Below are positions 23,754 to 54,797 of a stretch of DNA of 64,000 bases, one piece after another; the stretch's first letter is position 1, and each line of letters starts with the position of its first letter. The notes beneath the pieces were generated by a model, which saw only the letters and a list, made by a program, of their open reading frames with translations, made no database searches and was not told where the DNA came from. The translations under genes and the position numbers were made by a program. Source of the DNA: Candidatus Aldehydirespiratoraceae bacterium (lineage in GTDB: Bacteria > Actinomycetota > Acidimicrobiia > Acidimicrobiales > Aldehydirespiratoraceae); NCBI GenBank assembly GCA_965203375.1, contig OZ241886.1, positions 1,347,947 through 1,411,946 of the forward strand, read 5' to 3'.

Positions 23754-26336
23754 TCACTCGTAGGCGATGGCGTCTAGGACGTTCATGCGGCCGGCTCGGC
23801 GGGCGGGGAGGATGGCGGCTACTAGGCCGGCGGCGGCTGAGACGGCTACGTAGACGGCCAGGGTGACCCAGGGGATCTGGACGTCGCTCACGAAGGCGTC
23901 GGGCAGGGCCAGGGTGGCGGCCACGCCGAACACCACGCCCACCGCCACTCCGAGCAGGGCTCCGAAGACGGCCACTATGGCTGCCTCCCAGCGGATGGAG
24001 CGCCGGAGCTGGCGGCGGGTCATGCCCACCGCTCGCAGCAGTCCGATCTCGCGGGTGCGCTCGAACACCGACAGGGCCAGGGTGTTGGCGATGCCCACCA
24101 GGGCGATCACCAGCGCCAGCCCCAATAGCAGGGTGATCACGATGAGAAACGAGTTGAGCCGGGTCTGCTGGCTCTGGCGGAACTCCACCCGGTTCTCGGC
24201 CGTCACCGTCGGGTAGTCGGCCAGGGCCTCGTCGATGGCGGCCCGGCTGCGGTCCACCAGCACGGCCTGGTCGGCCTCGCCCAAGTCGTCGGAGAACCCG
24301 GCGATGGTGGCGCTGGCGAAGGCCAGGTCGCTGCGGTTGAAGTGCTCGTCCCACAGGGCCACGTCGATCATCCAGTTGCCGTAGATGGTGGCGTCGGCGT
24401 AGACGGCGGCCACGGTGAGGGTCTCGGTCTCGTTGTCGGGGAAGGTCATCTCCAGCGTGTCGCCCACCCCCACCCCGAGATCGGCGGCCGGGTCGACGTG
24501 GATGGCCAAGCCCTCCAGCGGGTCGGCCGAGGCCAGGTCGCCGGCCACCACGTCGCCGTCGAGGTGGCTCTCAACCACGTCCAGCTCGGCCGCGAATATG
24601 TCTTTGGGGGCGCCGTTCACCTGCACCGAGTCGAAGGCGAACCGGTAGCGGACCACCCGGTCGAGCTCGTCGAGCGCCTCCAGGTCGTCGGCCACCTGCT
24701 CGGAGAACCCGGCCGACGGGTTGAAGCCCTGGCGGGTGGAGCGGACGAAGTAGTCGGCCTCCACCGCGTTGTCGAGGGTGCGCACGAAGGTCCTCTCCAC
24801 CGACTCGCCCACCACCGCGGCCAGCCCCACCAGGGCCAGGCCGATCATCAGCGCCCCGGCGGTGGAGGCGGTGCGGCGGGGGTTGCGGGCCGCGTTCTCC
24901 CGGGCGATCCGGCCCGGCACGCGGAACACCGCCTGCATGGGCCGCCCCAGCACCCGGGCCAGCGGCCGGGCGAAGGCCGGGCTCACCGTGTTGATGCCCA
25001 CGAAGGTGGCCAGGGCCCCGACCCCGATCAGGGCCAGGGTGGGCGCGGTGCCGAGCCCGCCGAACATCCCCGCCAACAGGGCGGCCGCGCCCGCCGCGGC
25101 CACCGCCCCGCCGGCGATCAGGCGCCGCCGCAGCCGGGCCGACTCGATCCGGTAGCCGTGCTGCAGGGCGGCGATGGGGGAGATGCGCCGGGCCCGCAGG
25201 GCAGGCCCGATCGACGAGACCACCGTCACCCCCAGGCCCACCAGAACGGCCAGCAGCACCGTGCGGGGCCGCAGCTCCAAGGGCCCCGACGGCAGCCCGA
25301 AGCCCCCGGCCCGCAGCAGGACCCTCAGCACCATGCTCAGCACCACCCCGCACCCGATGCCCGCCGCGGTGCTGAGCACCCCGACCGCGGCCGACTCGCC
25401 GATCACCGACCACCCCACCTGGCGGGGAGTAGCCCCGACGGCCCGCCACAGCCCGATCTCGCGCACCCGCTGGTCCAGGACCATCTGGAAGGTGTTGTTG
25501 ATGATGAAGGCCGACACGAACACGGCGATGAAGGCGAACACCAGCAGTATCCAGTTGAAGATGTTCACGAATTGGTCGAAGTCGGCCTCCTGCTCTTGCG
25601 TGGCGATCTGTCGGGTGATCACCTCGTAGGAGTCGCCCAGCGCGGCCTCGAGGCCGGCCTGCACCGCCGCGGGGTCGGCGCCGGGCGAGACTCTCACGCC
25701 GATCTCGAGGACTTCGCCCTCGAAGCCGAAGAAGCGCTGGGCGGTGGGCAGGTCGAAGGCGGCCATGGTCTGGCCGACGCTGGTGTTGGTGTCGGGGGCG
25801 CCGAAGTTGAACACGCCCACCAGCTCGAAGTCCTCGGCGCGGACCGGGCCGTTGACGGCGTAGGTCTCGCCGACCCGCAGGTCGTTGCGGGCCGCGGTGG
25901 TGGCGTCGGCCGCGAACTCGCCGCCGGCGGAGGGGGCCCGGCCCTCCACCAGGAAGAACTGGCTGGCCAGGAAGTTGAACCCCAGCGCGGGCGGCCCCGG
26001 CGGGATGATGGGCTCGCCGTCGCCGTCCACTATCACCACGTTGAAGGAGGCGACCGCGGGCAGCACCTCGCCCACGCCGTCGATGCGGGCCACCGGGTCC
26101 ACCAGGGAGTCGGGCAGGGCGGGCCGGTCGATGTCGCTGCCCACCTCCTGGACGGACCGCACGGTGAGGTCGGTGCCGGAGGTGATGTCGGAGGCCAGGT
26201 CGGAGAAGGTGGAGCGCAGGCTGTCGGTGAGCACGAAGGAGCCCACCACGAACATCACGCCGATCACCACCGTGAGGGTGGTGAGGGCGAATCGGATCTT
26301 CTTCTCGACCAGGTTGCGCAGAACGAGCCTGAACAC
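23754..26336 (-). CDS. ABC transporter permease, MacB/FtsX-type with two FtsX modules
   Basis: 860 aa. N-terminal TM (KIRFALTTLTVVIGVMFVV), large extracytoplasmic domains and two 4-TM FtsX-like modules. Paralog of 26435-28984 and sits in an operon with an ATPase. Confidence 0.85.
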   Translation of the reverse strand: MFRLVLRNLVEKKIRFALTTLTVVIGVMFVVGSFVLTDSLRSTFSDLASDITSGTDLTVRSVQEVGSDIDRPALPDSLVDPVARIDGVGEVLPAVASFNVVIVDGDGEPIIPPGPPALGFNFLASQFFLVEGRAPSAGGEFAADATTAARNDLRVGETYAVNGPVRAEDFELVGVFNFGAPDTNTSVGQTMAAFDLPTAQRFFGFEGEVLEIGVRVSPGADPAAVQAGLEAALGDSYEVITRQIATQEQEADFDQFVNIFNWILLVFAFIAVFVSAFIINNTFQMVLDQRVREIGLWRAVGATPRQVGWSVIGESAAVGVLSTAAGIGCGVVLSMVLRVLLRAGGFGLPSGPLELRPRTVLLAVLVGLGVTVVSSIGPALRARRISPIAALQHGYRIESARLRRRLIAGGAVAAAGAAALLAGMFGGLGTAPTLALIGVGALATFVGINTVSPAFARPLARVLGRPMQAVFRVPGRIARENAARNPRRTASTAGALMIGLALVGLAAVVGESVERTFVRTLDNAVEADYFVRSTRQGFNPSAGFSEQVADDLEALDELDRVVRYRFAFDSVQVNGAPKDIFAAELDVVESHLDGDVVAGDLASADPLEGLAIHVDPAADLGVGVGDTLEMTFPDNETETLTVAAVYADATIYGNWMIDVALWDEHFNRSDLAFASATIAGFSDDLGEADQAVLVDRSRAAIDEALADYPTVTAENRVEFRQSQQTRLNSFLIVITLLLGLALVIALVGIANTLALSVFERTREIGLLRAVGMTRRQLRRSIRWEAAIVAVFGALLGVAVGVVFGVAATLALPDAFVSDVQIPWVTLAVYVAVSAAAGLVAAILPARRAGRMNVLDAIAYE

Positions 26337-26445
26337 CGCTCTCAGCCCCCGGCTGTCAGATCGGACACCGCTCTCAGCCCCCGGCCGCCGACTCAGACAC
26401 CGTTCTCAGTCCTCGGCCGCTTGCGAACCCTCGGTCAGTCCTCGG
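26333..26445 (-). repeat. 32-bp tandem repeat (3 copies + partial) duplicating the stop/start junction between the two permease genes
   Basis: ACACCGCTCTCAGCCCCCGGC at 26333 and 26365, and a variant at 26397. On the minus strand each unit reads ...GGCTGAgagcgGTG... Confidence 0.8.
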
Positions 26446-28984
26446 TGGCGATGGCTTGCAGCACGTTCATCCGGCCGGCTCTGAAGGCCGGGAACAGGGC
26501 GGCCAGCAGGCCGAACACCAGCGACAGCGCCAGGTACAGCCCGAGCTGGAGCTTCGGCACCGTGATCACGTCGATGATGTCGGCGGGGATGGCCGCGGCG
26601 ATGGCCGCGCCGAAGCCCAGGCCCAAGACGATCCCGACCAGGGCCCCGTAGAGGGTCACCACCGCCGCCTCCCAGCGGATCATGCGCCGGGCCTGGCGGC
26701 GGGTCATGCCCACCGCCCGCAGCAGGCCGATCTCCCGGGTGCGCTCGAACACCGACAGCGTCAGGGTGTTGACGATGCCCACCAGGGCGATCAGCAGGGC
26801 GAACCCCAGGAACACGTTCACCAGAACCAGCAGGGTGTTGAGTTGGGACTCGGCCGAGGCCTGGTACTCCGAGCGGTCCTCCAGGTTGACCTGGGGGTAG
26901 CGCTCCAGCGCCCGCTCCAGGGCGGCGCGCACGCTCTCGGCGTCGGCCGAGCCGGCGTCGACGGCCACCACGCTGTCGCTGGCGGTCGGGCTCATCTCGG
27001 TGATCAGGCCCCGGTCGACCAGCCAGTTCCCCCAGAACGTGGCCGTCTGGCTGTAGACCGCGGCCACCCGGAGCCGCCGGGTCTCGCCGTTGGGGAAGGT
27101 GAAGTCCAGCTCGTCGCCCGGCCCCACCCCGAAGTCGCCGGCCGGGTCTTGGTGCAGCAGCACGCCCGAGGCCGGGTCGAAGTCCTCCAGCGAGCCCTCC
27201 ACGACGCCCAGGTTGGCCACCGAGTCGATGCCGTCCACGTCGGCCCCGGTGAGGGTATGGGTCTGGCCGCCGACCTGGGCCTGGCCGCTGTTGAAGGCCA
27301 CGACCCGGCCCGCCCCGGCTTGGCGCAGGTCACCGGCCAGCGCCGCGGGCAGCTCCTCCTGGCCCTGGCTGACGATGAAGTCGGCGGCCACCGTGGTCTG
27401 CAGGTTCTGGTTGAACGAGCTCTTGAGCGACTGGCCCAGGATGGCGACGGTGGTCACCAGGGCCAGGCCGATGGTGAGGGCCACCGCGGTGGCCGCGGTG
27501 CGGCGGGGGCTGCGGGCCGCGTTGGCCCGGGCCAGCCGTCCCGAGGTCCCGAAGATCCACCCCAGCGGCAGGGCCAGCGACGAGACCACGCCGCGGGCCA
27601 TCAGCGGGCTGAGCACGGCCACGGCCATGAAGACCAGGCCCGCGCCCACCCCCAGCGACACGAGCTGGGCGGTGGTGCTGTCGAAGGAGGCGAACAGGCC
27701 CCGCAGGGTGAGCAGCAGCCCCATCCCGGCCAGCAGTCCCCCGGCCACCGGCCGCCAGCGCTGGCGGGCGGCGGCCGCGCCGGCCGCGCCCTCGGCCAGC
27801 CCGGCGATCGGCGGCGTGCGGGAGGCTTTGATGGCCGGCAGCAGCGACGACACCACGGTGAGGCCGATCCCCAGCGCCGCCGCCCAGATCACGGTGCGCA
27901 GCCGCAGCGGCAGCGGGCCGTCGGGCAGATCCGCCCCAAACGCGCTGAACAGCCCGCGCATCCCCAGGGCGCCGAGCATCCCCAGGCCGATGCCGAGGGC
28001 GGCCGCGGCCACCCCGATCAGCGACGACTCGGCGAGCACCGAGCGCCGGACCTGGGCGGGGGTGGCGCCGATGGCCCGCAGCAGCGACAGCTCGCGGATG
28101 CGCTGCCCCAGCACGATGCTGAAGGTGTTGGAGATGATGAAGGTGCTCACGAACAACACGATGAAGGCGAACACCAGCAGGGCGTTCTGGAAGATACCGA
28201 TGAACCCCTCGAAGGCGTCGCCGAACTCCTCGGAGATGGTCTCGGCCGCCACTACCTCCGCCCCGTCGGGCAGCACCGCGCCGATGGCGGCCTGCACCTC
28301 GGCCGCGTCGCGTCCGGGCTCGGCCCGCACCCCGATGGTCTGGACCAAGCCCTCGATCCCGAACAGCTCTTGGGCGGTGGCGGTGTCGAAGATCGTGAAC
28401 ACCGCCCCCAGCCCGGCGTTGTCGGGGAAGCCGAACTGCATCACGCCGGTCAGCTCCATGGAGCGGGGGCCGGTGGTGGTGACCACCTGATAGTCGCGGC
28501 CCACCTCGAAGTCGTAGGACCCGAAGGTGCTGATGTCGAGGGCGAACTGGCCCGGCCCCCGGGGCCGCTCGCCCTCCATCAGGTACCACTGCGATATGGC
28601 CTCGTCCTCGGTCCAGTTGGACCCGGCCACCGGTCCGGCGTTGGAGGTGACCGCCTGGCCGGCGCCGTCCACCGGGGTGACGCCCTGGATGAAGAACGTC
28701 CCCGCCGCTGATTCCACCCCGTCGATCGCCGCCACCTGGTCCACCAACTCATCGGGCAGCAGCGGCGCCTCGGTGGTGGTCAGGTCGCCGAATTCGAGCC
28801 GGCCCCGCACGGTGAAGTCGGTGCCCGAGACGATGTCTTCGGAGAGCTGGTCGAAGCTGGCCCGCAGCGAGTCGGCTACCACGAAGGAGGCCACCACGAA
28901 GCCGACTCCGATCACCACCGTGGAGGTGGTGAGGGCGAACCGGATCTTGTTGGCGAGAAGGGACTTGAGGGCCAGTCGCAGCAC
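26435..28984 (-). CDS. ABC transporter permease, MacB/FtsX-type with two FtsX modules
   Basis: 849 aa, with the same architecture and clear similarity to 23754-26336. Confidence 0.85.
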   Translation of the reverse strand: MLRLALKSLLANKIRFALTTSTVVIGVGFVVASFVVADSLRASFDQLSEDIVSGTDFTVRGRLEFGDLTTTEAPLLPDELVDQVAAIDGVESAAGTFFIQGVTPVDGAGQAVTSNAGPVAGSNWTEDEAISQWYLMEGERPRGPGQFALDISTFGSYDFEVGRDYQVVTTTGPRSMELTGVMQFGFPDNAGLGAVFTIFDTATAQELFGIEGLVQTIGVRAEPGRDAAEVQAAIGAVLPDGAEVVAAETISEEFGDAFEGFIGIFQNALLVFAFIVLFVSTFIISNTFSIVLGQRIRELSLLRAIGATPAQVRRSVLAESSLIGVAAAALGIGLGMLGALGMRGLFSAFGADLPDGPLPLRLRTVIWAAALGIGLTVVSSLLPAIKASRTPPIAGLAEGAAGAAAARQRWRPVAGGLLAGMGLLLTLRGLFASFDSTTAQLVSLGVGAGLVFMAVAVLSPLMARGVVSSLALPLGWIFGTSGRLARANAARSPRRTAATAVALTIGLALVTTVAILGQSLKSSFNQNLQTTVAADFIVSQGQEELPAALAGDLRQAGAGRVVAFNSGQAQVGGQTHTLTGADVDGIDSVANLGVVEGSLEDFDPASGVLLHQDPAGDFGVGPGDELDFTFPNGETRRLRVAAVYSQTATFWGNWLVDRGLITEMSPTASDSVVAVDAGSADAESVRAALERALERYPQVNLEDRSEYQASAESQLNTLLVLVNVFLGFALLIALVGIVNTLTLSVFERTREIGLLRAVGMTRRQARRMIRWEAAVVTLYGALVGIVLGLGFGAAIAAAIPADIIDVITVPKLQLGLYLALSLVFGLLAALFPAFRAGRMNVLQAIATED

Positions 28985-29024
28985 GGCGGAACCTTCCTTC
29001 AGAGGCGAGGCGGCCGGGCGGGGC

Positions 29025-29768: not shown

Positions 29769-29805
29769 CTGGTCTCCTAGCGGGGTTGGGGACGGGCCGT
29801 CACTC

Positions 29806-30052: not shown

Positions 30053-30991
30053 GTGACGATTGTCGAGACGGCCGCGCTGACCCAGCGCTTCGGAGCGGCG
30101 GCCGCCCTCGACGGCCTCGACGTGGCCATCGGCGGCGGGGTCACCGGCCTGGTCGGGGCCAACGGCGCGGGCAAGACCACCTTCCTGTACGCGGTGCTGG
30201 GCCTGAGGCCGCCCACCTCCGGGTCGGTGCGGGTGCTCGGCCTCGACCCCGTGGCCGACGGCCCCGAGCTGCGGTCTTTGGTGGGGTTCGCGCCCGAGCG
30301 GAACGTGCTGCCCGACGAGATGCGGGCCATCGACTTCGTCCGCCACCTGGCCGAGGTCCGGGGCCTGCCCCGCAAGGAGGCCCGCACCCGGGCCTCCGAC
30401 GCCCTGTGGCTGGTGGGCCTGGGCGAGGAGCGGCTGCGGGCCCTCGGGACCATGTCCACCGGCCAGCGCCAGCGGGTGAAGCTGGCCCAGGCCATCGCCT
30501 CCGACCCCCGCCTGGTGCTGCTCGACGAGCCCACCGACGGGCTCGACCCGGTGCAGCGCAACGAGATGCTGGCCCTCATCCGCCAAGTCAGCAACGAGTT
30601 CGGCGCCGATGTCATCGTCTCCTCCCACGTCCTCGACGAGGTGGAGCAGGTCTGCGACAACGTGGTGGCCATCGACGCCGGGCAACTGGTGGCCAGCGGG
30701 GCGCTGTCGGATCTGGTGGGCGACAGGGGCGGCCTGGCCCTGGAGCTGGTCGAGCCGGCCGACTCTCCGGGGGCGGCCGCAGCGGTGGAGGCGGCGCTGC
30801 GGGCGTCGGGGCTGGGGGTGCGCCGGGACGGGGTCAGGCTGGTGGTGGAGGGGGCCGACCACGGCGAGCTGTGCGACCGGGTCCGCGACGCGGTGAGCGA
30901 GGCCTCCGCTGGCCTGCGCCGACTCGAAACCCGCCGCCACAACCTGGAGGACCTGTTCGAGGACCGCGCCGCCGAGGAGCTGTCGGCGTGA
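30053..30991 (+). CDS. ABC transporter ATP-binding protein (ABC-2 type)
   Basis: Walker A GANGAGKTT, signature MSTGQRQRVKLAQAI, Walker B LVLLDEPTDGLD. Confidence 0.9.
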   Translation: MTIVETAALTQRFGAAAALDGLDVAIGGGVTGLVGANGAGKTTFLYAVLGLRPPTSGSVRVLGLDPVADGPELRSLVGFAPERNVLPDEMRAIDFVRHLAEVRGLPRKEARTRASDALWLVGLGEERLRALGTMSTGQRQRVKLAQAIASDPRLVLLDEPTDGLDPVQRNEMLALIRQVSNEFGADVIVSSHVLDEVEQVCDNVVAIDAGQLVASGALSDLVGDRGGLALELVEPADSPGAAAAVEAALRASGLGVRRDGVRLVVEGADHGELCDRVRDAVSEASAGLRRLETRRHNLEDLFEDRAAEELSA

Positions 30992-31003
30992 GCGCGCTGG
31001 TGC

Positions 31004-31083
31004 CCGGCCGGCGGGTCCTGTCACGGGCGCGGATTTCGCCGACAAGCGGCGAAATCCTTGCCCCCGTGCCACCCACCGGCCTG
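31004..31083 (+). repeat. ~80-bp palindromic REP/MITE-like element, copy 1
   Basis: CCGGCCGGCGGGTCCTGTCACGGGCGC-GGATTTCGCCG-acaag-CGGCGAAATCC-TTGCCCCCGTGCCACCCACCGGCCTG. Perfect 11-bp central stem with imperfectly complementary outer arms. Near-identical copies at 34576-34656 and 42020-42100. Flanked by a 16-bp duplication (30979-30994 / 31110-31125). Confidence 0.85.
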
Positions 31084-31118
31084 ATGCATCGCGCTGACCG
31101 GGCCGAAGGGCTGTCGGC

Positions 31119-32023
31119 GTGAGCGAGGTCCCGTTGGCCCCTGAGGCCCCGACTGCTGACGGCGACGCCCAGATATTCGGCCGGGGCTACCGGCCCTACG
31201 AGGGGGACCGGGCCGGCGTCGGCGGCGCCGTCTGGTCGGTGGCCCGGCACTCGTTCCGGGCCGCCCTGGGGCTGGGGCGGCCGGCCCGGCACAAGATCCT
31301 GCCGGTGGCCGTCGCCGTCCTGTCGTTCCTGCCCGCGGTGGCGCTGGCCGGGGTGTCCGCCCTGTTGGGCTCCACCTTCGACTCCGCCGATGAGTTCCTG
31401 CCCCGCTACCACGAGTACTACGGCTTCATCGGCGTGTCGTTGGTCCTCTACTGCGGGCTGGTGGTGCCCGACATCCTGGTCGCCGACCGCCGCAACGGCA
31501 TGTTCGGCCTCTACATGTCCACCCCCCTGCAGCGCTGGAGCTACCTGGCGGCCAAGGCGCAGGCGGTGATGATGGCTATGGCCATCGTGACCGTCGGCCC
31601 CGTGCTGGTGCTGCTGCTGGCCTACACGGTCTACGGCGCCGGGCCCGAGGGGCTCGGCGGGTGGACGCTGGCCCTGGGCCGCATCCTGGGCGCCGGCCTG
31701 GCCTACGCCGGGCTGTACGCGGCGGTGAGCCTGGCCATGGCCAGCCTGACCGACCGCCGGGCCGTGGCGTCCGTCGGCGTGATCGGGCTGATCATCGGCA
31801 CTTCGATAATCGCTCCGCTGCTGGTGAATGAGGCTGAGATGAGCGCCCAGTTCCATCTCATGAACCTGCTGGCCATGCCCTTCAGCATGGTGGAGGTGAT
31901 CTTCGGAGAGCCGCCGTCCACCGGGGGGCTGACGGCCTTCGAGGTGGTGCGGGCCTGCGCGGGCTGGGCCGTGGCCGGCTGCGCCGCCATCGGGTGGCGC
32001 TACCGGCGACTGGAGGTCGGCTG

Positions 32024-32024
<1 letters not shown>
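31119..32024 (+). CDS. ABC-2 type transporter permease
   Basis: Multi-TM hydrophobic protein directly downstream of an ABC ATPase. GTG start overlaps a TGA (GTGA). Confidence 0.7.
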
Positions 32025-32998
<974 letters not shown>

Positions 32999-33007
<9 letters not shown>

Positions 33008-33142
33008 CCGGGCCGGCGCCCGAGGCGGTCAGGCGATGACCGGGTTGGCGCACCGAGGCGGTCAGGCGATGACCGCGGCCGTGACCCGATTGGCGGTCAG
33101 GCGATGACCGGGCTGGCGCCTTGTCGGGCGGTCAGGCGATGA
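32999..33142 (+). repeat. five tandem copies (32-35 bp) of the stop/start junction AGGCGATGACCG
   Basis: ATGA at 33004, 33036, 33069, 33104 and 33139. The first copy holds the ATPase stop and the last holds the permease start. Confidence 0.9.
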
Positions 33143-33891: not shown

Positions 33892-33915
33892 GCACCCCGC
33901 GAGGGATGCGACTCG

Positions 33916-34575: not shown

Positions 34576-34656
34576 CCGGCTGGCGGGTCCTGTCACGGGC
34601 GCGGTTTTTGCCGCAAGCGGCGAAAAACCTTGCCCCCGTGCCACCCACCAGCCTGG
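34576..34656 (+). repeat. REP/MITE-like element, copy 2 (variant central stem)
   Basis: Same outer arms as copy 1. The central stem is GGTTTTTGCCG...CGGCGAAAAACC, i.e. changes on both arms relative to GGATTTCGCCG...CGGCGAAATCC. Confidence 0.85.
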
Positions 34657-36729: not shown

Positions 36730-36741
36730 AGGGGGCGAACA

Positions 36742-39963: not shown

Positions 39964-40068
39964 GAGTCCGACGGCTCGGCTTGCGGCTCGCCCGGGGGTG
40001 TGTCCGACGGCTCGGCTTGCGGCTCGCCCGGGGGTGTGTCCGACGGCTCGGCTTGCGGCTCGCCCGGG
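39964..40068 (+). repeat. 36-bp tandem repeat x3 (12-aa unit G(E/V)SDGSACGSPG)
   Basis: Units at 39964, 40000 and 40036 (last partial). Units 2 and 3 each carry an in-frame GTG. Confidence 0.9.
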
Positions 40069-41988: not shown

Positions 41989-42019
41989 ATCTGAGACCTG
42001 CCAGACCGCGGGGAATGTC

Positions 42020-42100
42020 CCGGCCGGCGGGTCCTGTCACGGGCGCGGATTTCGCCGACAAGCGGCGAAATCCTTGCCCCCGTGCCACCCCCCGGCCTGG
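42020..42100 (+). repeat. REP/MITE-like element, copy 3
   Basis: Nearly identical to 31004-31083. Located about 30 nt after the GntR stop. Confidence 0.85.
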
Positions 42101-44017: not shown

Positions 44018-45349
44018 ATGACCCCGCGACGGCACCGGCGTTTTCGAGTTCGGCCGCTTCGGCCCCCGATCCTCGTGCTGGTATTGAGCGCGGTCGCGGT
44101 TCTGGCCGCATCCTCGGTGGCGCCGGCGAACAGTCATCGGGAGCGCATCGACGAGCGCCGCCGCCAGCAGCAGGAGCTCCGCGACCAGCAGGCCGAGCTG
44201 GCCCGCCAGAAGGCCGAGGCGGCCTCCGGCATCGACGCCCTGAATGCCGACGACCAGAGCCTGACCGACGCCCTGGCCGACTTGGACCGCTTTCTGGCTC
44301 TGCAGGAGTCGTACATCACCAGCGCCGAGCTGCTGATCGCCCAGCACGAGGCCGAGGCTGCCGCGGCCCGGATCGAGGCCGAGCGTCTAGCCGACGAGAT
44401 CGAGTCCATTCGAGAGCAGCTTCGCCGACGGGCCATCGACGCTTTCGTGCAGCCCCCCGACCATGTCGTGGACCCGCTGGCCAGCGAGGATTTCGGCGAG
44501 ACGGCCCGGCGCGAGTACCTGCTCAACCAGGTCATCGGCGACGGGCTGGAGATCGTGGACCGACTCCGCGTGGCCGAGTCGGCGCTGGAGGAGGCCCGCC
44601 GCGACGCCTTCGGTCAGGCGGCCGCGGCCGCCGCCGAGCGCGAGGCCCAGAGTCAGCGCCTGGCCGAGCTGCAGCAGACCCAGATTGATGCCGAGAGGCT
44701 GCGGGAGGAGATCCAAGACCGGATAGCCGACCTAGTGCAGCAGGGCGAGGCCATCGACGTCGCCGATGCGGACATGGCCCGGGAGATCCAGACCCTCGAG
44801 GCTGAGATCGCCGACATCGAGGAGGCCGAGCGCCGCCGCAGGGCCGAGGAAGAGCGCCGCAAGCGGGCCGAGGAAGCGCGCAAGCGCCGGGAGGCGGAGG
44901 AGGCCCGGCGCCGGGCGGAGGAGGCGGCGCGCCGGGAAGAGGCCGGGCAGAACCCCGGCGAGTTCTTTCTGGTGAACTGGCCCGCGTCCGGCCCCGTGGT
45001 GTCGGGCTTCGGGCCCCGGATCCACCCGATTTTCGGCGTCAAGCGCAACCACAACGGGATCGACATCGACGGCGACACCGGCGACCCGGTCCGGGCCGTC
45101 CTCATCGGGGAGGTGGTCATCGCCGGGTGGCGCAACGGATTCGGCAACACGGTGGTGCTCAACCACTTCGACGGCTACACCACCCTCTACGCCCATCTGA
45201 GCAAGATCTCGGTGTCGGTTGGCCAAGAGGTGGATCACGGTGAGCGCATCGGCTCGGTCGGGTCCACCGGATGGTCCACCGGCCCCCACCTGCACTTCGA
45301 GATACGCATCAACGGCAGAGCGGTGAACCCCATGCCCTACATGCCTTGA
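44018..45349 (+). CDS. M23-family metallopeptidase with N-terminal signal/TM and long coiled coil
   Basis: HNGIDI and GPHLHFEI motifs, plus extensive Glu/Arg/Ala-rich coiled coil. ATG 44018 is followed by a signal-like segment. Confidence 0.85.
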   Translation: MTPRRHRRFRVRPLRPPILVLVLSAVAVLAASSVAPANSHRERIDERRRQQQELRDQQAELARQKAEAASGIDALNADDQSLTDALADLDRFLALQESYITSAELLIAQHEAEAAAARIEAERLADEIESIREQLRRRAIDAFVQPPDHVVDPLASEDFGETARREYLLNQVIGDGLEIVDRLRVAESALEEARRDAFGQAAAAAAEREAQSQRLAELQQTQIDAERLREEIQDRIADLVQQGEAIDVADADMAREIQTLEAEIADIEEAERRRRAEEERRKRAEEARKRREAEEARRRAEEAARREEAGQNPGEFFLVNWPASGPVVSGFGPRIHPIFGVKRNHNGIDIDGDTGDPVRAVLIGEVVIAGWRNGFGNTVVLNHFDGYTTLYAHLSKISVSVGQEVDHGERIGSVGSTGWSTGPHLHFEIRINGRAVNPMPYMP

Positions 45350-45500
45350 TGGCCGACCGCTGTTTGCCCTCCGCCGGGGGGCGAACACCACCCCGGCGAG
45401 CAAGCCCTACATGCCTTGATGGCTGCCCGCTGTTTGCCTCCTGCCGGGGGCGAACATCACCCTGGCGAGCATGCCCTGCATGCCTTGATGACCACCCGAT
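45335..45500 (+). repeat. 69-70-bp tandem repeat (about 2.4 units) beginning inside the M23 gene 3' end
   Basis: CCCTACATGCCTTGATGG at 45335 and 45405, with variant CCCTGCATGCCTTGATGA at 45474. Each unit contains a hairpin GTTTGCCC...GGGCGAAC. Confidence 0.85.
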
Positions 45501-45546
45501 GCCTGAGTTCTGCAGGCCCTGAATCGCCTGTCCTTGAGTCTCGGCT

Positions 45547-46212: not shown

Positions 46213-46239
46213 CCTCCGACCGGGGAGGCCGCCACCCGT

Positions 46240-47181
46240 TCAGGCCGTAGCGACAGGCCGAGTCAACACATCGCCGACCATGCCGATCTCGGCCGCGGCC
46301 AGTGGATTGTTGTCAACCCATTGAGCCATGACTTCCTGAGCTGTCGATCCCTTCCTGAGCACACGCTTCCAGCTTCGTTCTGTCTGTGTCGCCTCAGCGC
46401 ACTGGTCTATCAGCTCCACAGCTACTGATATGTTCTCTGCCAAGTCGTATTCCACCGGAGCATATCGGGCCAGTTCTGCCAGATCTGCGACGTATTCATG
46501 GTCGGTAACTCGTTCAATCAGGCTTCTGGCTGCCTGCCGAGCAGTCCAATGCTCTGGATCCAGCGGCCGATATGTGCCGTAAGCGGTGGCAACATCGGTT
46601 GTTGCTATCAGACCAGATCGAATCGCAGCCCACATGTCAAAGAGATCCCGCGGGCGTTTACGCTGATAGACAGCTATGACTTTAGAGGCAACTATTTCCT
46701 CTGGGGGAAACGCCGGAACGGGTCCCCCGTCTTGGAACCACGGACTGTCGACATGGAAGTCTGGCCGCTCGGCACCATCCGGCAATTGGCGCGGAGCCCT
46801 CTGAATGTCCACCTTGACGCGCAGCGGGTCGCCTGCGTGATCACTGCCTGTCATTAAAACATGAACGAATTGTGAATTGATTTTGCGGACTGTTCCTGAG
46901 AATCCTACCCGCTCACCAATCACTCGATAGACAGCAAATAGTTCTCTCAGATCTATGGGCCCAGTTAGCTGATAGTCCAGATCTTCGCTGTATCGCCATG
47001 GAACATCTAGCCAAACCTTGTGCAGGCATGTTCCGCCCTTGAGGGTGACGGCTTGGCTTAACAATGGGTCGTTGGCCACTTCGACCACTAGGCGCGCCAA
47101 GACCAAATCCTGTGCTACCTGGTCGACGCCGCTCCACGGAACAACACTGCGCCAATGCGCTAATTCTTCACCTGAGATCAT
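46240..47181 (-). CDS. AbiEii/AbiGii-family nucleotidyltransferase toxin (DUF1814)
   Basis: LKGGTCLHKVW...RYSEDLDY motif. 4-nt overlap with the upstream antitoxin-like gene. Lower G+C than flanks. Confidence 0.85.
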   Translation of the reverse strand: MISGEELAHWRSVVPWSGVDQVAQDLVLARLVVEVANDPLLSQAVTLKGGTCLHKVWLDVPWRYSEDLDYQLTGPIDLRELFAVYRVIGERVGFSGTVRKINSQFVHVLMTGSDHAGDPLRVKVDIQRAPRQLPDGAERPDFHVDSPWFQDGGPVPAFPPEEIVASKVIAVYQRKRPRDLFDMWAAIRSGLIATTDVATAYGTYRPLDPEHWTARQAARSLIERVTDHEYVADLAELARYAPVEYDLAENISVAVELIDQCAEATQTERSWKRVLRKGSTAQEVMAQWVDNNPLAAAEIGMVGDVLTRPVATA

Positions 47182-48050
47182 GCAGCTATAGCGCAGCGAG
47201 ATTTATGGGCCGGGTCCAGCACATGGTCCACGAGCACCATCCACTTGTTCCCGGTGACGGTTCGCGTGGATTCTGAGATCAAGGAAGGCTTGCCGGTCAA
47301 AGGTACCTCGCGGCTGTTGCCGTCATGGACCAGATCAGCCAGAGGCCCAAGATCTAATTGAGAGCGGCACGCCCATTCGAGATGTCCCCGCATGATCTCA
47401 GTGATGTAACCGACTCGCTGCACCACCGACCGCGGGTACCAAACGGCTGTTTCGGTCATCCTCTGGGTGTCCAGCAGTCCTTCCGTTAGGAGCATGTCTC
47501 CGATGATCGTCGACACATGATGGAAGCCGAAGGCGATTTCGGGTCTGGCCACGAGATCGAAGATCGTGGCCTCCGGGTTCGTGATCCATATCGTTCCCAC
47601 AGGGCGCTCTTTGCGGCGGATCAGCTCTGGTCGCACACGGCCGCGGATGAACTGCAAGTGCGTGCGCCCCACGTTGCGGCTCCGATGCTGGCGCGGCGTC
47701 ACGATCTGGCACGAGGCGTGCGAGTAATGGTGCGAGCCGTGAGCGCTGGCTGCCGACACGTACCCCACGCAATAGTCGTGGCCCATGAACCGCATCATCT
47801 CGTCGAGATAGTCAGTGACCATCGGTGCCCGCCGCATCTTTCGGTCCGCCGCTGGCACCGGCGCCCAGCCGCCCTTGGTGACAGAGACGATTTCGCGGTT
47901 ATGGCGAGTTTCCGCCAAGGCATGCGACACGCGGGCCGGGCGGACCCCCAGAAGCACGGCGAGGCGCTCAGTCGTGGCGAACCTCTCGCCGTTCTCCAGC
48001 AGATAGTCGCAGATCCGGTCGGACCGCACGCGTTGCGCCATGGTCCGCAT
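47178..48050 (-). CDS. AbiEi-like antitoxin / transcriptional regulator
   Basis: N-terminal wHTH-like segment (ICDYLLENGERFATTERLAVLLGVRPARVSHALAE). About 290 aa and positioned immediately upstream of AbiEii. Confidence 0.7.
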   Translation of the reverse strand: MRTMAQRVRSDRICDYLLENGERFATTERLAVLLGVRPARVSHALAETRHNREIVSVTKGGWAPVPAADRKMRRAPMVTDYLDEMMRFMGHDYCVGYVSAASAHGSHHYSHASCQIVTPRQHRSRNVGRTHLQFIRGRVRPELIRRKERPVGTIWITNPEATIFDLVARPEIAFGFHHVSTIIGDMLLTEGLLDTQRMTETAVWYPRSVVQRVGYITEIMRGHLEWACRSQLDLGPLADLVHDGNSREVPLTGKPSLISESTRTVTGNKWMVLVDHVLDPAHKSRCAIAA

Positions 48051-48109
48051 CCTACCCCCGACGGTTTGTCACTACCGCCGGGCTGAAGGGGCAGAAATGG
48101 CCGCGGCCT

Positions 48110-48922: not shown

Positions 48923-48958
48923 GGCGCCAACCTAGGCGGGCCTGTCTCGCCGGATGAA

Positions 48959-49075
48959 CACCGACTCAAACGATGTTCAGCGGGCCGGCGTCGTGGCACC
49001 GACTCGAACCGGCGTTCAGCGGGTCTGCGACATGATCCCAACCTCGAAATGACGTTCAGCGGGCCGGCGGCACGG
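48959..49075. repeat. degenerate ~38-41-bp tandem repeat x3 in divergent intergenic region
   Basis: Units share C(A/C)(C/A)C(G/C)(A/T)CTCGAA...GTTCAGCGGG, with TTCAGCGGG occurring three times. Confidence 0.5.
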
Positions 49076-49206
49076 CGCCTGAACCCGGGGAGGCCTGCCT
49101 GGCCGCGGCCGGACCGGGTATCTTCACCGGTGCCGACTGATCCGCCGCCGACACCCCGGGAGGACCGATCGACATCGCCCTGCGGCTCCTGGCCGCCTTC
49201 GGGCTG

Positions 49207-50457
49207 GTGGTCGCCAACGCCGGTTTCGTGGCCGCCGAGTTCGCCCTGGTGGCGGTGGACCGCACCCGAGTGGACGAGCGGGCCGCCTCCGGCGACCGGC
49301 GGGCCCGGCGGGTCAAGCGCCTCCTGGCCCGCCTGTCCTACCACCTGTCCGGGGCCCAGCTCGGCATCACCGTCACGTCGCTGCTGCTCGGCTACCTGGC
49401 CGAGCCGGTCATCGCCGTCGCCCTGGAGCCCGCCGTCTCCGCCGTCTTCGGCGAGGCCACGCCGCGCGGCGTCTCCATCGGCATCGCCCTGGCCGTGGCC
49501 ACCGTCGTGCAGATGGTGCTGGGCGAGCTGGTGCCCAAGACGGTGGCCACCACCAAGCCGTTCGGGTCGGCGGTGGCGCTGGCCCGCCCCGTCGCCGTCT
49601 ACGGCCTGCTGGCCCGGCCCGCGGTGGCCTTCCTCGACGGGCTGGCCAACCGGACGGTGAGGCGGCTGGGCATCGAGCCCCGCCAGGACATCGAGACGAC
49701 CCCGGACCGCCGCGAGCTCACCCAGCTCATCTTGTCGTCGGGCCAGGAAGGCGTCCTCGACGTGGGCGAGGTTCAGCTCCTGACCCGCTCCATCCGGCTG
49801 GCGGACAAGCAGGCCGACGACGCCATGGTGCCCAGAGTGGAGATCGTGGCCATCGGCGCCGACGCGTCGGCCGACGATCTGGCCGAGCTGGCCTCTCGCA
49901 CCGGCCATTCGAGGTTCCCGGTGACCGGCGAGGGGCTCGACGACATCGTCGGGGTGGTGCATGTGAAGTCGATGTACCGGTGCCCGGTGGCCGCCCGGGC
50001 GTCGACGCCGGTGGCCGAGTTGATGGCGCCGGTGCCGGCCGTGCCGGAGTCTCGGGACCTGGGCGAGCTGATGGCGGAGCTGCGGAGCGGGGCCGGCCAG
50101 CTCGCGGTGGTGATCGACGAGCACGGCGGCACGGCCGGGATCATCACCCTCGAGGACGTGCTCGAGGAGATCGTGGGCGAGATCGACGACGAGCACGACA
50201 CGGTCACCCCGGTCCGCACCCGGGTGGAGTCCCGGGGCTCGACGGTGCTGCCGGCCTCGCTGCATCCCGACGAGGTGCGCGACGCCACCGGGTTCGCCAT
50301 GCCCTCCGGGGAGTTCGAGACGCTGGCCGGGCTGGTGCTGGACCGGCTCGGCCACATACCGGTCCCCGGCGAGATCGTCACCGTCGACGGCTGGAGGATT
50401 GAGGTGGTGGCCATGGACCGGCTGCGCATAGCCACCGTCCGGGTGGTGGCGCCGTGA
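49207..50457 (+). CDS. CNNM/CorC-family protein (DUF21 + CBS pair + CorC_HlyC)
   Basis: DUF21 start NAGFVAAEFALVAVDR, CBS region, and C-terminal CorC_HlyC-like domain. GTG 49207 is the first canonical start, but the conserved first TM helix appears to begin upstream (see findings). Confidence 0.85.
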   Translation: MVANAGFVAAEFALVAVDRTRVDERAASGDRRARRVKRLLARLSYHLSGAQLGITVTSLLLGYLAEPVIAVALEPAVSAVFGEATPRGVSIGIALAVATVVQMVLGELVPKTVATTKPFGSAVALARPVAVYGLLARPAVAFLDGLANRTVRRLGIEPRQDIETTPDRRELTQLILSSGQEGVLDVGEVQLLTRSIRLADKQADDAMVPRVEIVAIGADASADDLAELASRTGHSRFPVTGEGLDDIVGVVHVKSMYRCPVAARASTPVAELMAPVPAVPESRDLGELMAELRSGAGQLAVVIDEHGGTAGIITLEDVLEEIVGEIDDEHDTVTPVRTRVESRGSTVLPASLHPDEVRDATGFAMPSGEFETLAGLVLDRLGHIPVPGEIVTVDGWRIEVVAMDRLRIATVRVVAP

Positions 50458-50525
50458 TGTCGGCCCTTGCGTGGACGGGTGGTGGTGCCGTGAGGCCGGG
50501 CCTTGCGGGGGCGGTGGCGCCGTGA
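50440..50525 (+). repeat. three tandem copies (32-36 bp) of the GTGA stop/start junction
   Basis: GG(T/C)GGTG(G)CGCCGTGA at 50454, 50490 and 50522 (GTGA positions). Confidence 0.8.
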
Positions 50526-51571
50526 CGGTCTGGTTCCTGATCGCGGCGGTGGCGCTTTTGGCGGCCAACGCCTTCTTCGTGGCCGCCGAGTTCGCCCTGG
50601 TCGCCTCCCGGGCGCCGCGCCTGGAGGCCGGCGGCGCCGACGACCGGGCCAACCGGCTGGCCCTGGCCGCGGTGCGCGACCTGCAGCGCCAACTCGCCGG
50701 GTGCCAGCTCGGCATAACCATGGCCTCGCTGGGCTTGGGCTACACGGCCGAGCCGGCGCTGGCCCATCTGCTGGAGTCGGTGATCGGGCGGGTGGTGGAC
50801 CTGCCCTCGGGTGTGGTCGACACCGTCTCTTTCGTCGGGGCCCTGGCCGTGGTGGTGACCTTTCACATGGTGCTGGGCGAGATGGTGCCCAAGAACATCG
50901 CCATCTCCGGCCCCGAGGCCGCGGTGAGGGTGCTGGCCCCGGTCCTGCGGGTCTACATGACGGTGCTAGGGCCGGTGATCTGGGCTCTCAACGTCGTCTC
51001 CGCCGGGCTGGTGCGGATGACCGGTCTGAGGCCGGTGGACGAGATCGACACCGTCCTCACCGTCAACGAACTGCACACGCTGCTGGCCGGGGCCCGGGCC
51101 GAGGGGGTGATCGAGCAGACCGAGCACGAGCTGCTGTCGGGGGCTCTGCGGTTCCGGGCCCGCTCGGCGGGCTCGCTCATGGTGCCCCGATCCCGTCTGG
51201 TGTCGGTGCCCCGGTCGACGTCGGTGGCCGGGATCGAGTCGGTGGTGGCGGCCAGCGGCCACACCCGGGTGCCGGTGTGGGGGTCGGACCCCGACGACGT
51301 GGTGGGGTTCGTCCACGCCAAGGACCTGCTGCGGATGCCGTCCGAGGGCCGGGACGACCCGGTGCCGCTGGAGCTGATCCGCCGGATGCTGGTGGTCGGC
51401 CCCGACCACCCCGGCCGCGAGCTGATGGTGTGGATGCGCCGCTCCCGCATCCACATCGCCTTGGTGCGAGACGACCAGAGCCGGGTGCTGGGGATCGTCA
51501 CCCTCGAAGACCTGCTGGAGTCCCTGGTGGGCGACATCTACGACGAAACCGACCGCGCCGTCGAAGTCTGA
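50522..51571 (+). CDS. CNNM/CorC-family protein (DUF21 + CBS pair)
   Basis: VTVWFLIAAVALLAANAFFVAAEFALV is the DUF21 N-terminus. GTG 50522 overlaps a TGA; the ORF-track start 50471 lies within the junction repeat. Confidence 0.85.
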   Translation: MTVWFLIAAVALLAANAFFVAAEFALVASRAPRLEAGGADDRANRLALAAVRDLQRQLAGCQLGITMASLGLGYTAEPALAHLLESVIGRVVDLPSGVVDTVSFVGALAVVVTFHMVLGEMVPKNIAISGPEAAVRVLAPVLRVYMTVLGPVIWALNVVSAGLVRMTGLRPVDEIDTVLTVNELHTLLAGARAEGVIEQTEHELLSGALRFRARSAGSLMVPRSRLVSVPRSTSVAGIESVVAASGHTRVPVWGSDPDDVVGFVHAKDLLRMPSEGRDDPVPLELIRRMLVVGPDHPGRELMVWMRRSRIHIALVRDDQSRVLGIVTLEDLLESLVGDIYDETDRAVEV

Positions 51572-51659
51572 TCGCCGGGGTTCTGACAGCCCCCGGTTCT
51601 GATCGCCGGGCGCAGGCGTCCGGGCGGGCCCGAGTCGGCCGCCCCTGGGGTCTCGGTGC

Positions 51660-52439: not shown

Positions 52440-52490
52440 AGGCCCAACCTACTCTCCGGGGTGGCCGGGGCGGGCCGGTAGCCTCAGGTT

Positions 52491-54599
52491 GTGGCCCTCA
52501 CTGTCTCGCTGCCCGACGGGTCTGAGCGCGAATTGCCCGACGGGGCGACCGCGGCCGATCTGGCCGCGGCCGTCGGCCCCCGACTGGCTGCCGACGCGGT
52601 GATCGCGGTGGTGGACGGCGAGGAGCGAGACCTCCACCGGCCCCTGCCCGACGGGGCCCGGGTGGAGATCGTTGTCGCCGGCTCGCCCGCGGGGCTGCAC
52701 ACCATCCGCCACTCCACCGCCCACGTGCTGGCCCAGGCCGTGCTCGACCTGTTCCCCGGGGCCACTCACGCCATCGGCCCCCCCACCGAGAGCGGCTTCT
52801 TCTACGACTTCGAGCTGCCGGGCGGGGCCGGCTTCAGCGAAGGCGACTTGGAGCGCATCGAGGCCCGGATGCGGGAGATCGTCGCCGCCGACCAGCTCTT
52901 CGAGCGGGCCGAGATCGGCGCCGTCGAGGCCATGGAGCTGTTCGAGGGCCACCGCTTCAAGCAGGAGATCATCTCGTCGGTGGCCCTGGGGGCCGGCGGC
53001 CCGGGCTCCAGCGACGCGGCGGATGATGCCGACGAGGCTGGGACCGGATCGCGGTCTGATGGCTCCATGACCGCCGCCGCGGACTCCGGCGACGCGGCAG
53101 GCGGGGCTGGCCGGGCCGGGACGGCCGCCGGCGACGATGAGGACGGTGAGCTGGCCGCTGAGGCCGCCGGCGACGGCACGGTGAGCTACTACCGCAACGG
53201 CGACGGCTTCATCGACTTGTGCCGCGGCCCCCACGTCGCGTCCACCGGGAAGCTGGGCCACTTCGCCCTCCAGCGGGCCAGCGGCGCCTACTGGCGGGGC
53301 TCGGAGAAAAACCCCATGCTCCAGCGCGTCCACGGCACGGCCTGGGCCACGGCCAAAGACCTCAAGGCCCACCTCCAGCAGCTCGCCGAGGCGGCCAAGC
53401 GCGACCACCGCCGCCTGGCCGCCGAGCTCGACTTGGTGTCGTGGCCGCCCGAGCTGGGGCCGGGGCTGGCCGTCTGGCACCCCAAGGGGGCGCTGGTCCG
53501 CAAGATCATGGAGGACTACTCGCGGGCCCGCCACGAACAGGGCGGCTACCAGTTCGTGTTCTCGCCCCACCTCGCCAAGTCGGTGCTGTGGGAGACCTCC
53601 GGCCACCTCGACTACTTTGCCGACAGCATGTACCCGCCCATGGAGATGGACGGGGCCGACTACTACCCGAAGCCGATGAACTGCCCGTTCCACGTGATGG
53701 TCTACCGGTCGGGCCAGCGCAGCTACCGGGACCTGCCCATCCGGCTGTTCGAGCTGGGGACGGTCTACCGGTACGAGCGCTCCGGGGTGGTTCACGGCCT
53801 GCTGCGCAGCCGGGGCTTCACCCAGGACGACAGCCACATCTTCTGCGCCCGCGAGCAGGTGGCCGGCGAGCTGGCGTCGCTGCTCGACTTCGTCCTCAGC
53901 GTGCTGAGGGCCTTCGGCTTCGAGGACTTCGAGGCCAAGCTGTCCACCCGCCCCGCCGACAAGTGGGTGGGGTCCGAGGAGTTGTGGGACGAGGCCACCG
54001 ACGGGCTGCGGGCCGCTCTGGACGAAGCAGGCCTCGACTACGGCGTCGATGTCGGCGGCGGCGCCTTCTACGGCCCCAAGATCGACGTCGACGTCCGCGA
54101 CGCCATCGGGCGGTCCTGGCAGCTCTCCACCATCCAGCTCGACTTCAACCTCCCGGAGCGGTTCGCCCTCGACTACGCGGCCGCCGATGGGTCCCGGCCC
54201 CGGCCGGTGATGATCCACCGGGCCCTGTTCGGCTCGGTGGAGCGGTTCTTCGGGGTGCTGCTCGAGCACTACGCGGGCACCTTCCCGGCCTGGCTGGCCC
54301 CGGTGCAGGCCGTTGTCCTCCCGGTGGCCGAAGACCATCACCCCTACGCGGCCTCGGTGGCCGAGGGGCTGCGGGCCGAGGGCTTCCGGGTCGAGGTCTC
54401 GCCCGCGGTCGAGCCGCTGGGCAAGCGGGTGCGCACGGCCAAGGTGGCCAAGCTGCCCTACGTGCTGGTGGTCGGCGGCGACGACGCCGCCTCGGGCACG
54501 GTGGGGGTCAACCCCCGGGGCAGCGGCTCGCCCGAGCGGGGGGTGGCGGTGGCCGCCTTCGCGGCCCGACTGGCCGCCGAGGTGCGGGACCGGGCCTGA
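52491..54599 (+). CDS. thrS: threonine--tRNA ligase
   Basis: TGS-like N-terminus, editing-domain HSTAHVLAQAV, class II motifs (RLFELGTVYRYERSG; GGGAFYGPKID), and an anticodon-binding C-terminus. Carries a Gly/Asp/Ala-rich insert at about 52981-53180. Confidence 0.95.
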   Translation: MALTVSLPDGSERELPDGATAADLAAAVGPRLAADAVIAVVDGEERDLHRPLPDGARVEIVVAGSPAGLHTIRHSTAHVLAQAVLDLFPGATHAIGPPTESGFFYDFELPGGAGFSEGDLERIEARMREIVAADQLFERAEIGAVEAMELFEGHRFKQEIISSVALGAGGPGSSDAADDADEAGTGSRSDGSMTAAADSGDAAGGAGRAGTAAGDDEDGELAAEAAGDGTVSYYRNGDGFIDLCRGPHVASTGKLGHFALQRASGAYWRGSEKNPMLQRVHGTAWATAKDLKAHLQQLAEAAKRDHRRLAAELDLVSWPPELGPGLAVWHPKGALVRKIMEDYSRARHEQGGYQFVFSPHLAKSVLWETSGHLDYFADSMYPPMEMDGADYYPKPMNCPFHVMVYRSGQRSYRDLPIRLFELGTVYRYERSGVVHGLLRSRGFTQDDSHIFCAREQVAGELASLLDFVLSVLRAFGFEDFEAKLSTRPADKWVGSEELWDEATDGLRAALDEAGLDYGVDVGGGAFYGPKIDVDVRDAIGRSWQLSTIQLDFNLPERFALDYAAADGSRPRPVMIHRALFGSVERFFGVLLEHYAGTFPAWLAPVQAVVLPVAEDHHPYAASVAEGLRAEGFRVEVSPAVEPLGKRVRTAKVAKLPYVLVVGGDDAASGTVGVNPRGSGSPERGVAVAAFAARLAAEVRDRA

Positions 54600-54797
54600 T
54601 GGTCGAGATGGCGGAGCGGCCTGAAGTGCCTGAGGCCGCGGGCGGGCCCGAGACGCGGGGCCGGACCTGATGTGGGCGAGACGGCGGGGCGGGCCTGAGG
54701 TGCCTGAGGCCGCGGGCGAGCCCGAGACGCGGGACCGGGCCTGAAGTGCCTGAGGCCGCGGGCGGTCCCGAGACGCGGGAGCGGGCCTGATGGTCGA
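54592..54797 (+). repeat. tandemly repeated thrS/HIT junction (units ~46-74 bp) bounded by GGGCCTGATGGTCGA at both ends
   Basis: GGGCCTGATGGTCGA at 54592 and 54783. Internal units share GTGCCTGAGGCCGCGGGCG.(G/T)CCCGAGACGCGG. Confidence 0.85.

Follow-up and report, generated by a model that had tools for sequence, protein, structure and literature searches.

Stop/start junction duplications in operons of an uncultured Acidimicrobiales bacterium: repeat arrays with a probable in-register tolerance

Introduction

What becomes of a compact operon when the short sequence that holds the stop codon of one gene together with the next gene's start codon is duplicated? This question is raised by five loci in a window of 64,000 nt (the whole stretch of DNA analysed here, whose coordinates are used throughout), which belongs to a metagenome-assembled, circular contig of 3.66 Mb (ENA ERZ25068400, ctg22244_238x_c) from an uncultured Acidimicrobiales bacterium. 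The nearest ThrS in the genome collection is 83% identical to that of the window, and the window backbone has a GC content of ~72% and a GC content at third codon positions (GC3) of ~0.95. A first-pass annotation had proposed that at each of the five loci mini open reading frames (mini-ORFs) lead from one junction copy to the next and so form a relay of termination and reinitiation between the flanking genes. From the analyses described below, these loci look like duplications that span a junction where stop and start overlap or abut (NTGA, TGATG or TGA-N5-GTG), similar to mycobacterial interspersed repetitive units (MIRUs) and variable-number tandem repeats (VNTRs), and it is probable that they are tolerated in register.

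Results

Stop/start junctions are duplicated at five loci

Repeats had been reported at five operon junctions, and we confirmed all of them. As with MIRUs, each lies between same-strand genes, in a predicted operon.

Locus 1, 26333..26445, minus strand: 32-nt array between two MacB/FtsX permease genes (upstream 26435-28984, minus strand; downstream 23754-26336, minus strand)
Locus 2, 30979..31125, plus strand: between an ABC ATPase gene (30053-30991) and an ABC-2 permease gene (31119-32024)
Locus 3, 32999..33142, plus strand: between an ABC ATPase gene (31994-33007) and an ABC-2 permease gene (33139-33891)
Locus 4, 50440..50525, plus strand: between a CNNM/CorC gene (49207-50457) and its CNNM paralogue (50522-51571)
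Locus 5, 54592..54797, plus strand: between thrS (52491-54599) and a HIT-family gene (54790-55320)

We checked the frames at all loci by tracing starts and stops codon by codon. At locus 3, the ATGA overlap is present in five copies (33004, 33036, 33069, 33104 and 33139; core GGTCAGGCGATGACCG) with periods of 32, 33, 35 and 35 nt, and three mini-ORFs (33004-33039, 33036-33107 and 33104-33142) complete the chain to the gene start at 33139, the copy at 33069 being read through in frame. Locus 4 has GTGA at 50454, 50490 and 50522 (periods of 36 and 32 nt), where one mini-ORF of 23 codons (50454-50525), with the middle GTGA in frame, completes the chain. Locus 5 is the longest, with TGATG at 54597, 54668 and 54788 and TGA-A-GTG at 54742. 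Its units of 71, 74 and 46 nt form a complete chain of mini-ORFs of 23 (54599-54670), 24 (54670-54744) and 14 codons (54746-54790), and a second stop-start motif in each unit, CCTGA[A/G]GTG, provides alternative routes.

The first-pass annotation had described the junctions as tandemly multiplied or re-created. Tandem Repeats Finder scored four of the five (103-248), but locus 2 is built differently. Here, a 16-nt GTGA junction core, GCTGTCGGCGTGAGCG, occurs at 30979 and again 131 nt away at 31110, which places GTGA at 30988 and 31119, and a single mini-ORF of 44 codons (30988-31122) stops on the GTGA at 31119, where the real start lies, so that the chain is complete. The two cores are separated by a dispersed palindromic element of 80 nt; the locus is one junction duplication and not a tandem array. 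At locus 1, the stop context CCGAGGACTGA at 26437 recurs at 26408, and TGA-N5-GTG units of 32 nt follow (26408/26400, 26376/26368 and 26344/26336), giving two mini-ORFs (26374-26400 and 26342-26368) of 8 codons plus stop, both in register.

The stop-to-start spacings are -4 (ATGA or GTGA), -1 (TGATG) and +1 (TGA-A-GTG) at loci 2-5, and +5 inside the array and +34 at the first link of locus 1. At loci 2-5 the mini-ORFs overlap or adjoin the stop and the start of the flanking genes; at locus 1 this holds within the array, and the first link fails.

The arrays arise locally and vary in copy number

We compared the window with related loci, which are referred to by L-numbers; L082 belongs to the same genome and reaches past the right end of the window. 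When the array units were searched by BLAST against each other and against 74 kb of this genome, those of loci 1, 3, 4 and 5 matched nothing else. The first and last copies of the arrays are the real ends of the flanking genes, and the flanking proteins keep their ancestral termini. The thrS-HIT junction is compact in 20 Acidimicrobiales genomes (-4 to +46 nt in 19 of them, mostly ≤+15), among which the HIT start MVERLWAGW is conserved, and the 190-nt spacer of the window is therefore derived. The ATPase1-permease1 junction is likewise compact in L083. No orthologue of the locus-1 junction was found in more distant relatives, which have a single permease gene there. These comparisons indicate that the arrays of loci 1, 3, 4 and 5 are local, derived, junction-spanning duplications, in line with the earlier proposal that they stem from duplicated stop/start sites. 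That a duplication at a junction spares both proteins probably explains why the arrays build up exactly there.

Between the window and close relatives (L163, at about 95.5-97% nucleotide identity, and L172, which is similarly close; ~96-98% identity for the two taken together), three junctions differ in length, which bears out the suggestion that copy number can change:

CNNM junction: 3 GTGA copies in the window, 4 in a close relative
thrS-HIT spacer: 190 nt in the window, 218 nt in a close relative (an indel of 28 nt with a CCTGA motif on either side)
Locus 3: 5 ATGA copies in the window, 4 in a close relative

The chain was complete in every one of these variants. In-register duplications or bridging ORFs were also observed at the same junctions in more distant relatives (CNNM in L002, 38 nt; ATPase2-permease2 in L083/84, 38 nt; ATPase1-permease1 in L133, 14 and 14 nt) and at other junctions in L005 (110 nt) and L039 (33, 17, 17 and 17 nt). 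Positions -14 to +5 relative to the stop, which make up the junction core, are nearly invariant, and the remainder of each unit drifts.

A mechanical scan for duplicated stop contexts (18-nt contexts behind 1385 coding ORFs in 1.55 Mb, comprising the window and the 80 related loci) returned 6 loci in the window versus about a dozen in all 80 related loci. This genome is unusually rich in junction duplications, and their clustering exceeds chance.

Public gene calls set the starts of CNNM2 (L167 4544) and ruvA (L170 19536) inside such spacers. The true starts look to be at L167 4565 (GTGA) and at about L170 19572 (ATGA), judging from conserved N-termini and mini-ORF ends.

A palindromic element produces the same architecture at locus 2

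The 80-nt element of locus 2 was found at the following places:

Copy 1, 31003..31083, plus strand: inside the locus-2 mini-ORF
Copy 2, 34576..34655, plus strand: intergenic, 91% identical, with compensatory stem changes
Copy 3, 42019..42099, plus strand: convergent intergenic region, 99% identical
Copy 4, L082 12362-12441: 1.3 kb past the right end of the window
Copies in a relative: L172 7700-7746 and 14312-14358

The four copies in 74 kb of this genome are 91-99% identical. The element is predicted to fold as RNA into a long imperfect hairpin (-56.3 kcal/mol, z = -6.1) and is open in five of the six reading frames. In L172, a relative with a 98% identical permease, it lies (14269-14389) in the opposite orientation at the GTG codon with which another permease gene starts; the window has no insert at this site (36729-36742). 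The start region AAACAGTGA is duplicated there, 119 nt apart, and the first GTG opens an ORF of 40 codons whose stop falls on the true start's GTGA. In L174 and L175 (88% protein identity), the locus-2 junction is without the element and has a bridged spacer of 43-46 nt. The element, inserting at or near start codons, would make the same relay architecture as local duplication does.

Like the REP/BIME, ERIC, Correia and MITE-like elements, the 80-nt element is dispersed, intergenic, near-identical, hairpin-forming and polymorphic in presence between close relatives. It differs from these elements in that neither a link to a transposase, nor terminal repeats, nor a short target duplication of regular form could be defined, and it has no Rfam match. 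Two of the six observed copies lie at a stop/start or start site, and these are flanked by irregular, start-codon-containing duplications of 13-16 nt.

All seven single duplications are in register

We defined the register as a period of 2 mod 3 (for spacings of -4, -1 or +5), since with such a period a start in one copy can reach the stop in the next. The first-pass annotation had reckoned with a chance of one in three per locus. This null is wrong here because a GC3-rich genome gives codon-phase-biased microhomology: when the final 90 nt of a gene are compared with the initial 90 nt of another, identities of 4-9 nt prove 2.0-3.5 times commoner if both sides share a codon phase, and in-phase microhomology across a -4 or -1 junction leads to a period of exactly 2 mod 3. 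Provided that duplications arise at microhomologies, this bias alone would put 50-64% of them in register under neutrality.

All seven single-duplication loci were at 2 mod 3 (L002, 38 nt; L083/84, 38 nt; ruvC/ruvA, 65 nt; L005, 110 nt; L063, 32 nt; locus 2, 131 nt; L172, 119 nt), which by hand calculation has p ~0.0005 against a null of 1/3. An interior-shuffle null for the spacers was set aside, as 50-90% of shuffles still bridge in many short spacers; it is uninformative because shuffling preserves the length and the two junction ends, and few stops occur at 72% GC. We used 1-nt indel variants, together with the period mod 3, in its place. In single-duplication loci, 0-25% of these variants completed the chain, and none did so in the cleanest cases.

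Net length differences in the bridging ORFs among relatives were multiples of three in 8 of 11 cases (3, 3, 81/84, 3, 9, 9, 27 and 9 nt; P ~0.009 against a null of 1/3, hand calculation), with 3 cases that were not. In the unbridged first link of locus 1, the sole observed length change was 1 nt. Where no coupled gene follows, the arrays at gene 3' ends had no mod-3 preference (37, 99, 26, 41, 66, 28 and 69 nt), an even spread that is predicted by neutral and selection models alike. The 7/7 register, the changes by multiples of three and the conservation of the cores hint at some frame constraint in these sequences. Each of these observations has a neutral alternative, namely small numbers, triplet slippage and recombination at the cores, respectively.

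Other repeats and bridged spacers in and beside the window

Three further repeats touch junctions or start regions:

45331..45490, plus strand: sixth junction array, with the stop context of an M23 peptidase gene, CATGCCTTGATG, in three copies (TGATG)
39966..40068, plus strand: start-region repeat, perfect 36-nt unit in 2.9 copies, directly after a GTGA junction at 39946
61508..61612, plus strand: start-region repeat, ATGA in three copies (61508, 61556 and 61589), in frame with a DUF3048 lipoprotein gene

In the 45331 array, successive copies are 70 and 69 nt apart (1 and 0 mod 3), and the start of the TPK gene lies about 60-95 nt downstream of it. The 39966-40068 repeat is in frame with the downstream CoA-transferase-like gene (0 mod 3) and has an in-frame GTG in each unit, so by its sequence it would act as an N-terminal extension or as alternative GTG starts. 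GGGAGG is present 8 nt upstream of the first ATG of the 61508-61612 repeat.

Single bridging ORFs of the form GTGA...GTGA span the DUF3048-pdxS spacer (62855-62936; 29 codons) and the pdxT-yebC spacer (L082 11485-11557; 26 codons). Both spacers are bridged in L167 and L169 too, and neither is in L164; conserved -10-like boxes, TAGGAT and TACTCT, lie within them. At the ruvC-ruvA junction, bridging ORFs of 22, 25 and 28 codons were found in three genomes, and the 65-nt duplication of this genome, just outside the window, is the in-register one included above. Further along, the start region of ruvB, CTGACATGGCCCGC (L082 13860-13975, ~2.8-2.9 kb past the right end of the window), is duplicated 72 nt apart, that is, at 0 mod 3 with the first ATG in frame with ruvB, and the ruvA-ruvB spacer is 173 nt in this genome versus 93 nt in relatives.

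Observations that weigh against a frame-preserving relay

Several results count against the view that these junctions are held in register. The relay had been described as unbroken in every case; this is true of loci 2-5, but at locus 1, on the minus strand, no start codon occurs in the 34 nt that come after the true upstream stop (26437-26435), and the chain is broken. The "five out of five" of the first-pass annotation was also a selected sample, as the 45331-45490 array in the same window breaks the register: the mini-ORF from the ATG at 45349 runs to 45520, passing the next copies. At the thrS-HIT junction of L163, the steps are 72, 73 and 74 nt, and the chain completes solely via the alternative inner motifs. 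Under strict offsets, 26-81% of the 1-nt indel variants still complete the chain, the figure being 44-81% for arrays with at least three mini-ORF links. This tolerance arises because the units carry several stop-adjacent starts, and chain completion in multi-copy arrays therefore proves little.

Against the phase-biased null the register bias is only borderline (p ~0.03-0.05 at 0.6, for 6-7 of 6-7 loci, hand calculation). Triplet slippage could account for part of the indels in multiples of three. Most restarts have no convincing Shine-Dalgarno sequence before them, and the GC content of the mini-ORFs by codon position (0.76/0.67/0.81) is unlike that of genes (about 0.72/0.50/0.95). At the pdxT-yebC and DUF3048-pdxS spacers, the downstream genes may have promoters of their own, given the -10-like boxes.

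Alternative explanations

A single mobile, MIRU-like dispersed family inserted at all five loci would fit the locus-2 insert, which is dispersed and polymorphic in L172; the units of loci 1, 3, 4 and 5, however, share no similarity with one another and have no other match in the 74 kb, and their first copies are the actual upstream 3' ends joined to downstream 5' ends. Within the sequence compared, this reading is refuted for these four loci, and as an account of all five it is very improbable. It is still harder to credit that the repeats are assembly or polishing artefacts of a long-read metagenome assembly. The source is indeed a metagenome-assembled contig, and the copies of the 39966-40068 repeat are 100% identical, but the array copies have diverged (77-89% identity) and independent assemblies from other samples (L163, L172, L174, L175, L002 and L083) have arrays at these junctions too, with differing copy numbers.

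In one of the two remaining explanations there would be no constraint at all, the register coming from phase-biased microhomology and from the reader's choice of loci and the mini-ORFs being untranslated and irrelevant. In-phase microhomology alone predicts the 50-64% in register, multi-copy chains withstand indels, the composition of the mini-ORFs is not coding-like, the uncoupled 3'-terminal arrays spread evenly over mod 3, and some cases do not conform (the 45331 array, locus 1 at its first link and, in L164, the DUF3048-pdxS spacer). We nevertheless consider the absence of any constraint rather unlikely, in view of the 7/7 single-duplication junctions, the 8/11 length changes by multiples of three and the stop/start cores kept while the spacers drift; moreover, microhomology between coding ends leaves the element-driven relays at locus 2 and at the L172 site unexplained. 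At the other extreme, the arrays could be an adaptive rheostat, as had been suggested, in which each restart loses ribosomes and copy number sets an evolvable ratio of downstream to upstream protein. This would suit the differing copy numbers at three junctions between genomes ~96% identical, the conservation of the cores above that of the spacers, and the arrays or bridges carried by the CNNM, ATPase-permease, thrS-HIT and ruvC-ruvA junctions in several lineages. That recurrence could, however, reflect shared ancestry of the spacer, and array lengths vary freely and without pattern among close relatives. Neither thrS and HIT nor the paralogous CNNM genes are obvious stoichiometric partners, and a neutral origin followed by a filter covers the same facts, which makes the rheostat unlikely.

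Scans for other signals and other features of the window

An Rfam scan of the whole window returned no family at the gathering score, the arrays and the 80-nt element included, and we ruled these out as known RNAs on that ground. Promoter and terminator scans of 26-34 kb and 45-56 kb found no promoter-like or terminator-like site within the arrays. The only output of a tRNA scan was one odd "tRNA-???" within a coding ORF.

Three more tandem repeats or duplications were observed, outside stop/start junctions or within genes:

48958-49069: 39-nt unit in 2.9 copies, in the intergenic region that separates a minus-strand ABC ATPase gene from the divergent first CNNM gene on the plus strand, at no junction
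55359-55492: in-frame coding tandem repeat of 30-nt units in the gene for a 284-aa protein after HIT
57853-57928: 63-nt in-frame coding duplication at the 3' end of an acyltransferase gene

Three regions have a lower GC content than the backbone:

4100-24350: low-GC island (50-62% versus 72%), with the gene for the Lhr helicase (94-4059) on one side and those for the MacB permeases on the other
46240-48050, minus strand: AbiEii/AbiEi toxin-antitoxin-like pair in a 60% GC patch between the TPK and ABC ATPase genes
59100-60700: ~64% GC patch between pimA and an M48-like gene, with a 237-aa ORF (59196-59909) absent from public gene calls and a 264-aa gene without a Pfam hit

The island encodes a HATPase_c_3 protein (5795-7336), a DruA-like protein (7346-9274), a PD-(D/E)XK nuclease (12840-14126, minus strand) and a 1849-aa DEAD/Helicase_C/MZB helicase (14056-19605, minus strand), besides three large ORFs without a Pfam hit. 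By this gene content, it looks like a Druantia-type defence island.

Discussion

The arrays are most likely tolerated by-products that are kept harmless by their register, and not dedicated regulators. We propose that slippage or unequal exchange at short direct repeats flanking a junction would duplicate a segment of 14-130 nt. In a tight operon, no tandem duplication other than one across a junction would spare both flanking proteins, as the upstream ORF would still end at the first copy and the downstream ORF would still begin at the last. The arrays might later expand, contract and drift. With copies spaced at 2 mod 3, a start codon in one of them would open a short ORF that passes first through the downstream gene's duplicated 5' end and next through the upstream gene's duplicated 3' end, ending exactly at the following copy. 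A ribosome terminating at its UGA could then restart at the adjacent start codon, translating 8-45 codons each time, on to the true start. Such a relay would keep the spacer translated and preserve the coupling, which an untranslated spacer of 60-190 nt would lose. As an untranslated spacer might expose its RNA to Rho, the relay would avoid both uncoupling and Rho exposure. In-register versions would arise more often, through the codon-phase-biased microhomology, and would probably also survive better. Insertion of the palindromic dispersed element at or near start codons would be a second route to the same arrangement.

We ruled out that the mini-ORFs encode real small proteins, as their composition is non-coding-like and their sequences vary freely between relatives. 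If anything in them matters, it would seem to be the frame, the stop and the start rather than the product.

The first-pass annotation knew of no description of this architecture, yet it has been described for MIRUs, and their coupling is covered in a 2025 review (PMC12548453). MIRUs insert at start codons, with the ORF of the repeat coupled to the gene at a spacing of -4, an arrangement that probably keeps the impact on expression to a minimum (PMC12548453, with reference to Supply et al. 1997); they are cited as a natural precedent for coupling (PMC12548453). Coupling is most efficient at -4 to +3 and, in most studies, is strongly reduced or lost past about 30-40 nt (PMC12548453); the spacings at loci 2-5 lie within the efficient range. 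In architecture, the arrays described here resemble MIRUs as short repeats, often in tandem, between co-oriented genes, with a repeat ORF that leads from at or near the upstream stop to an overlap with the downstream start at -4 spacing, and with a copy number that varies among close relatives. Unlike MIRUs, which are a dispersed family, four of the five derive from the very junction at which they lie, that is, from the upstream 3' end and the downstream 5' end; of the five loci, only the 80-nt element of locus 2 is dispersed. The units are also often shorter (14-36 nt as well as 46-74 nt), and the host is an uncultured member of the Acidimicrobiales, in a different class of Actinomycetota from Mycobacterium. 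What differs from the known case is the locally generated arrays and the separate palindromic element.

The spacings observed (-4, -1 and small positive values) also match those of termination-reinitiation coupling by delivery ORFs, as in coupling from upstream ORFs and in synthetic bicistronic designs, and in both cases the sole apparent role of the short ORF is to bring the ribosome to the next start. Unlike the known delivery ORFs, those described here are chained in series, up to three at a time, and have arisen by junction duplication. It is doubtful, if conceivable, that selection keeps such relays genome-wide as copy-number-variable translational attenuators that set downstream-to-upstream expression ratios; under that reading, local junction duplication and the palindromic mobile element would both feed the system.

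Two practical points concern genomes of this kind. Where GC3 is extreme, frame statistics need a phase-aware null and not 1/3. In the operons of high-GC metagenome-assembled genomes, spacers of 60-200 nt can hide chains of tiny ORFs, and in such spacers gene callers set starts wrongly. Should the relays be translated, the coupled-ORF repeat of the MIRU type would be more than a peculiarity of mycobacteria: it would offer compact high-GC operons in general a means of withstanding insertions and duplications at their junctions, and such repeats could be generated locally, out of the junction, with no mobile family involved.

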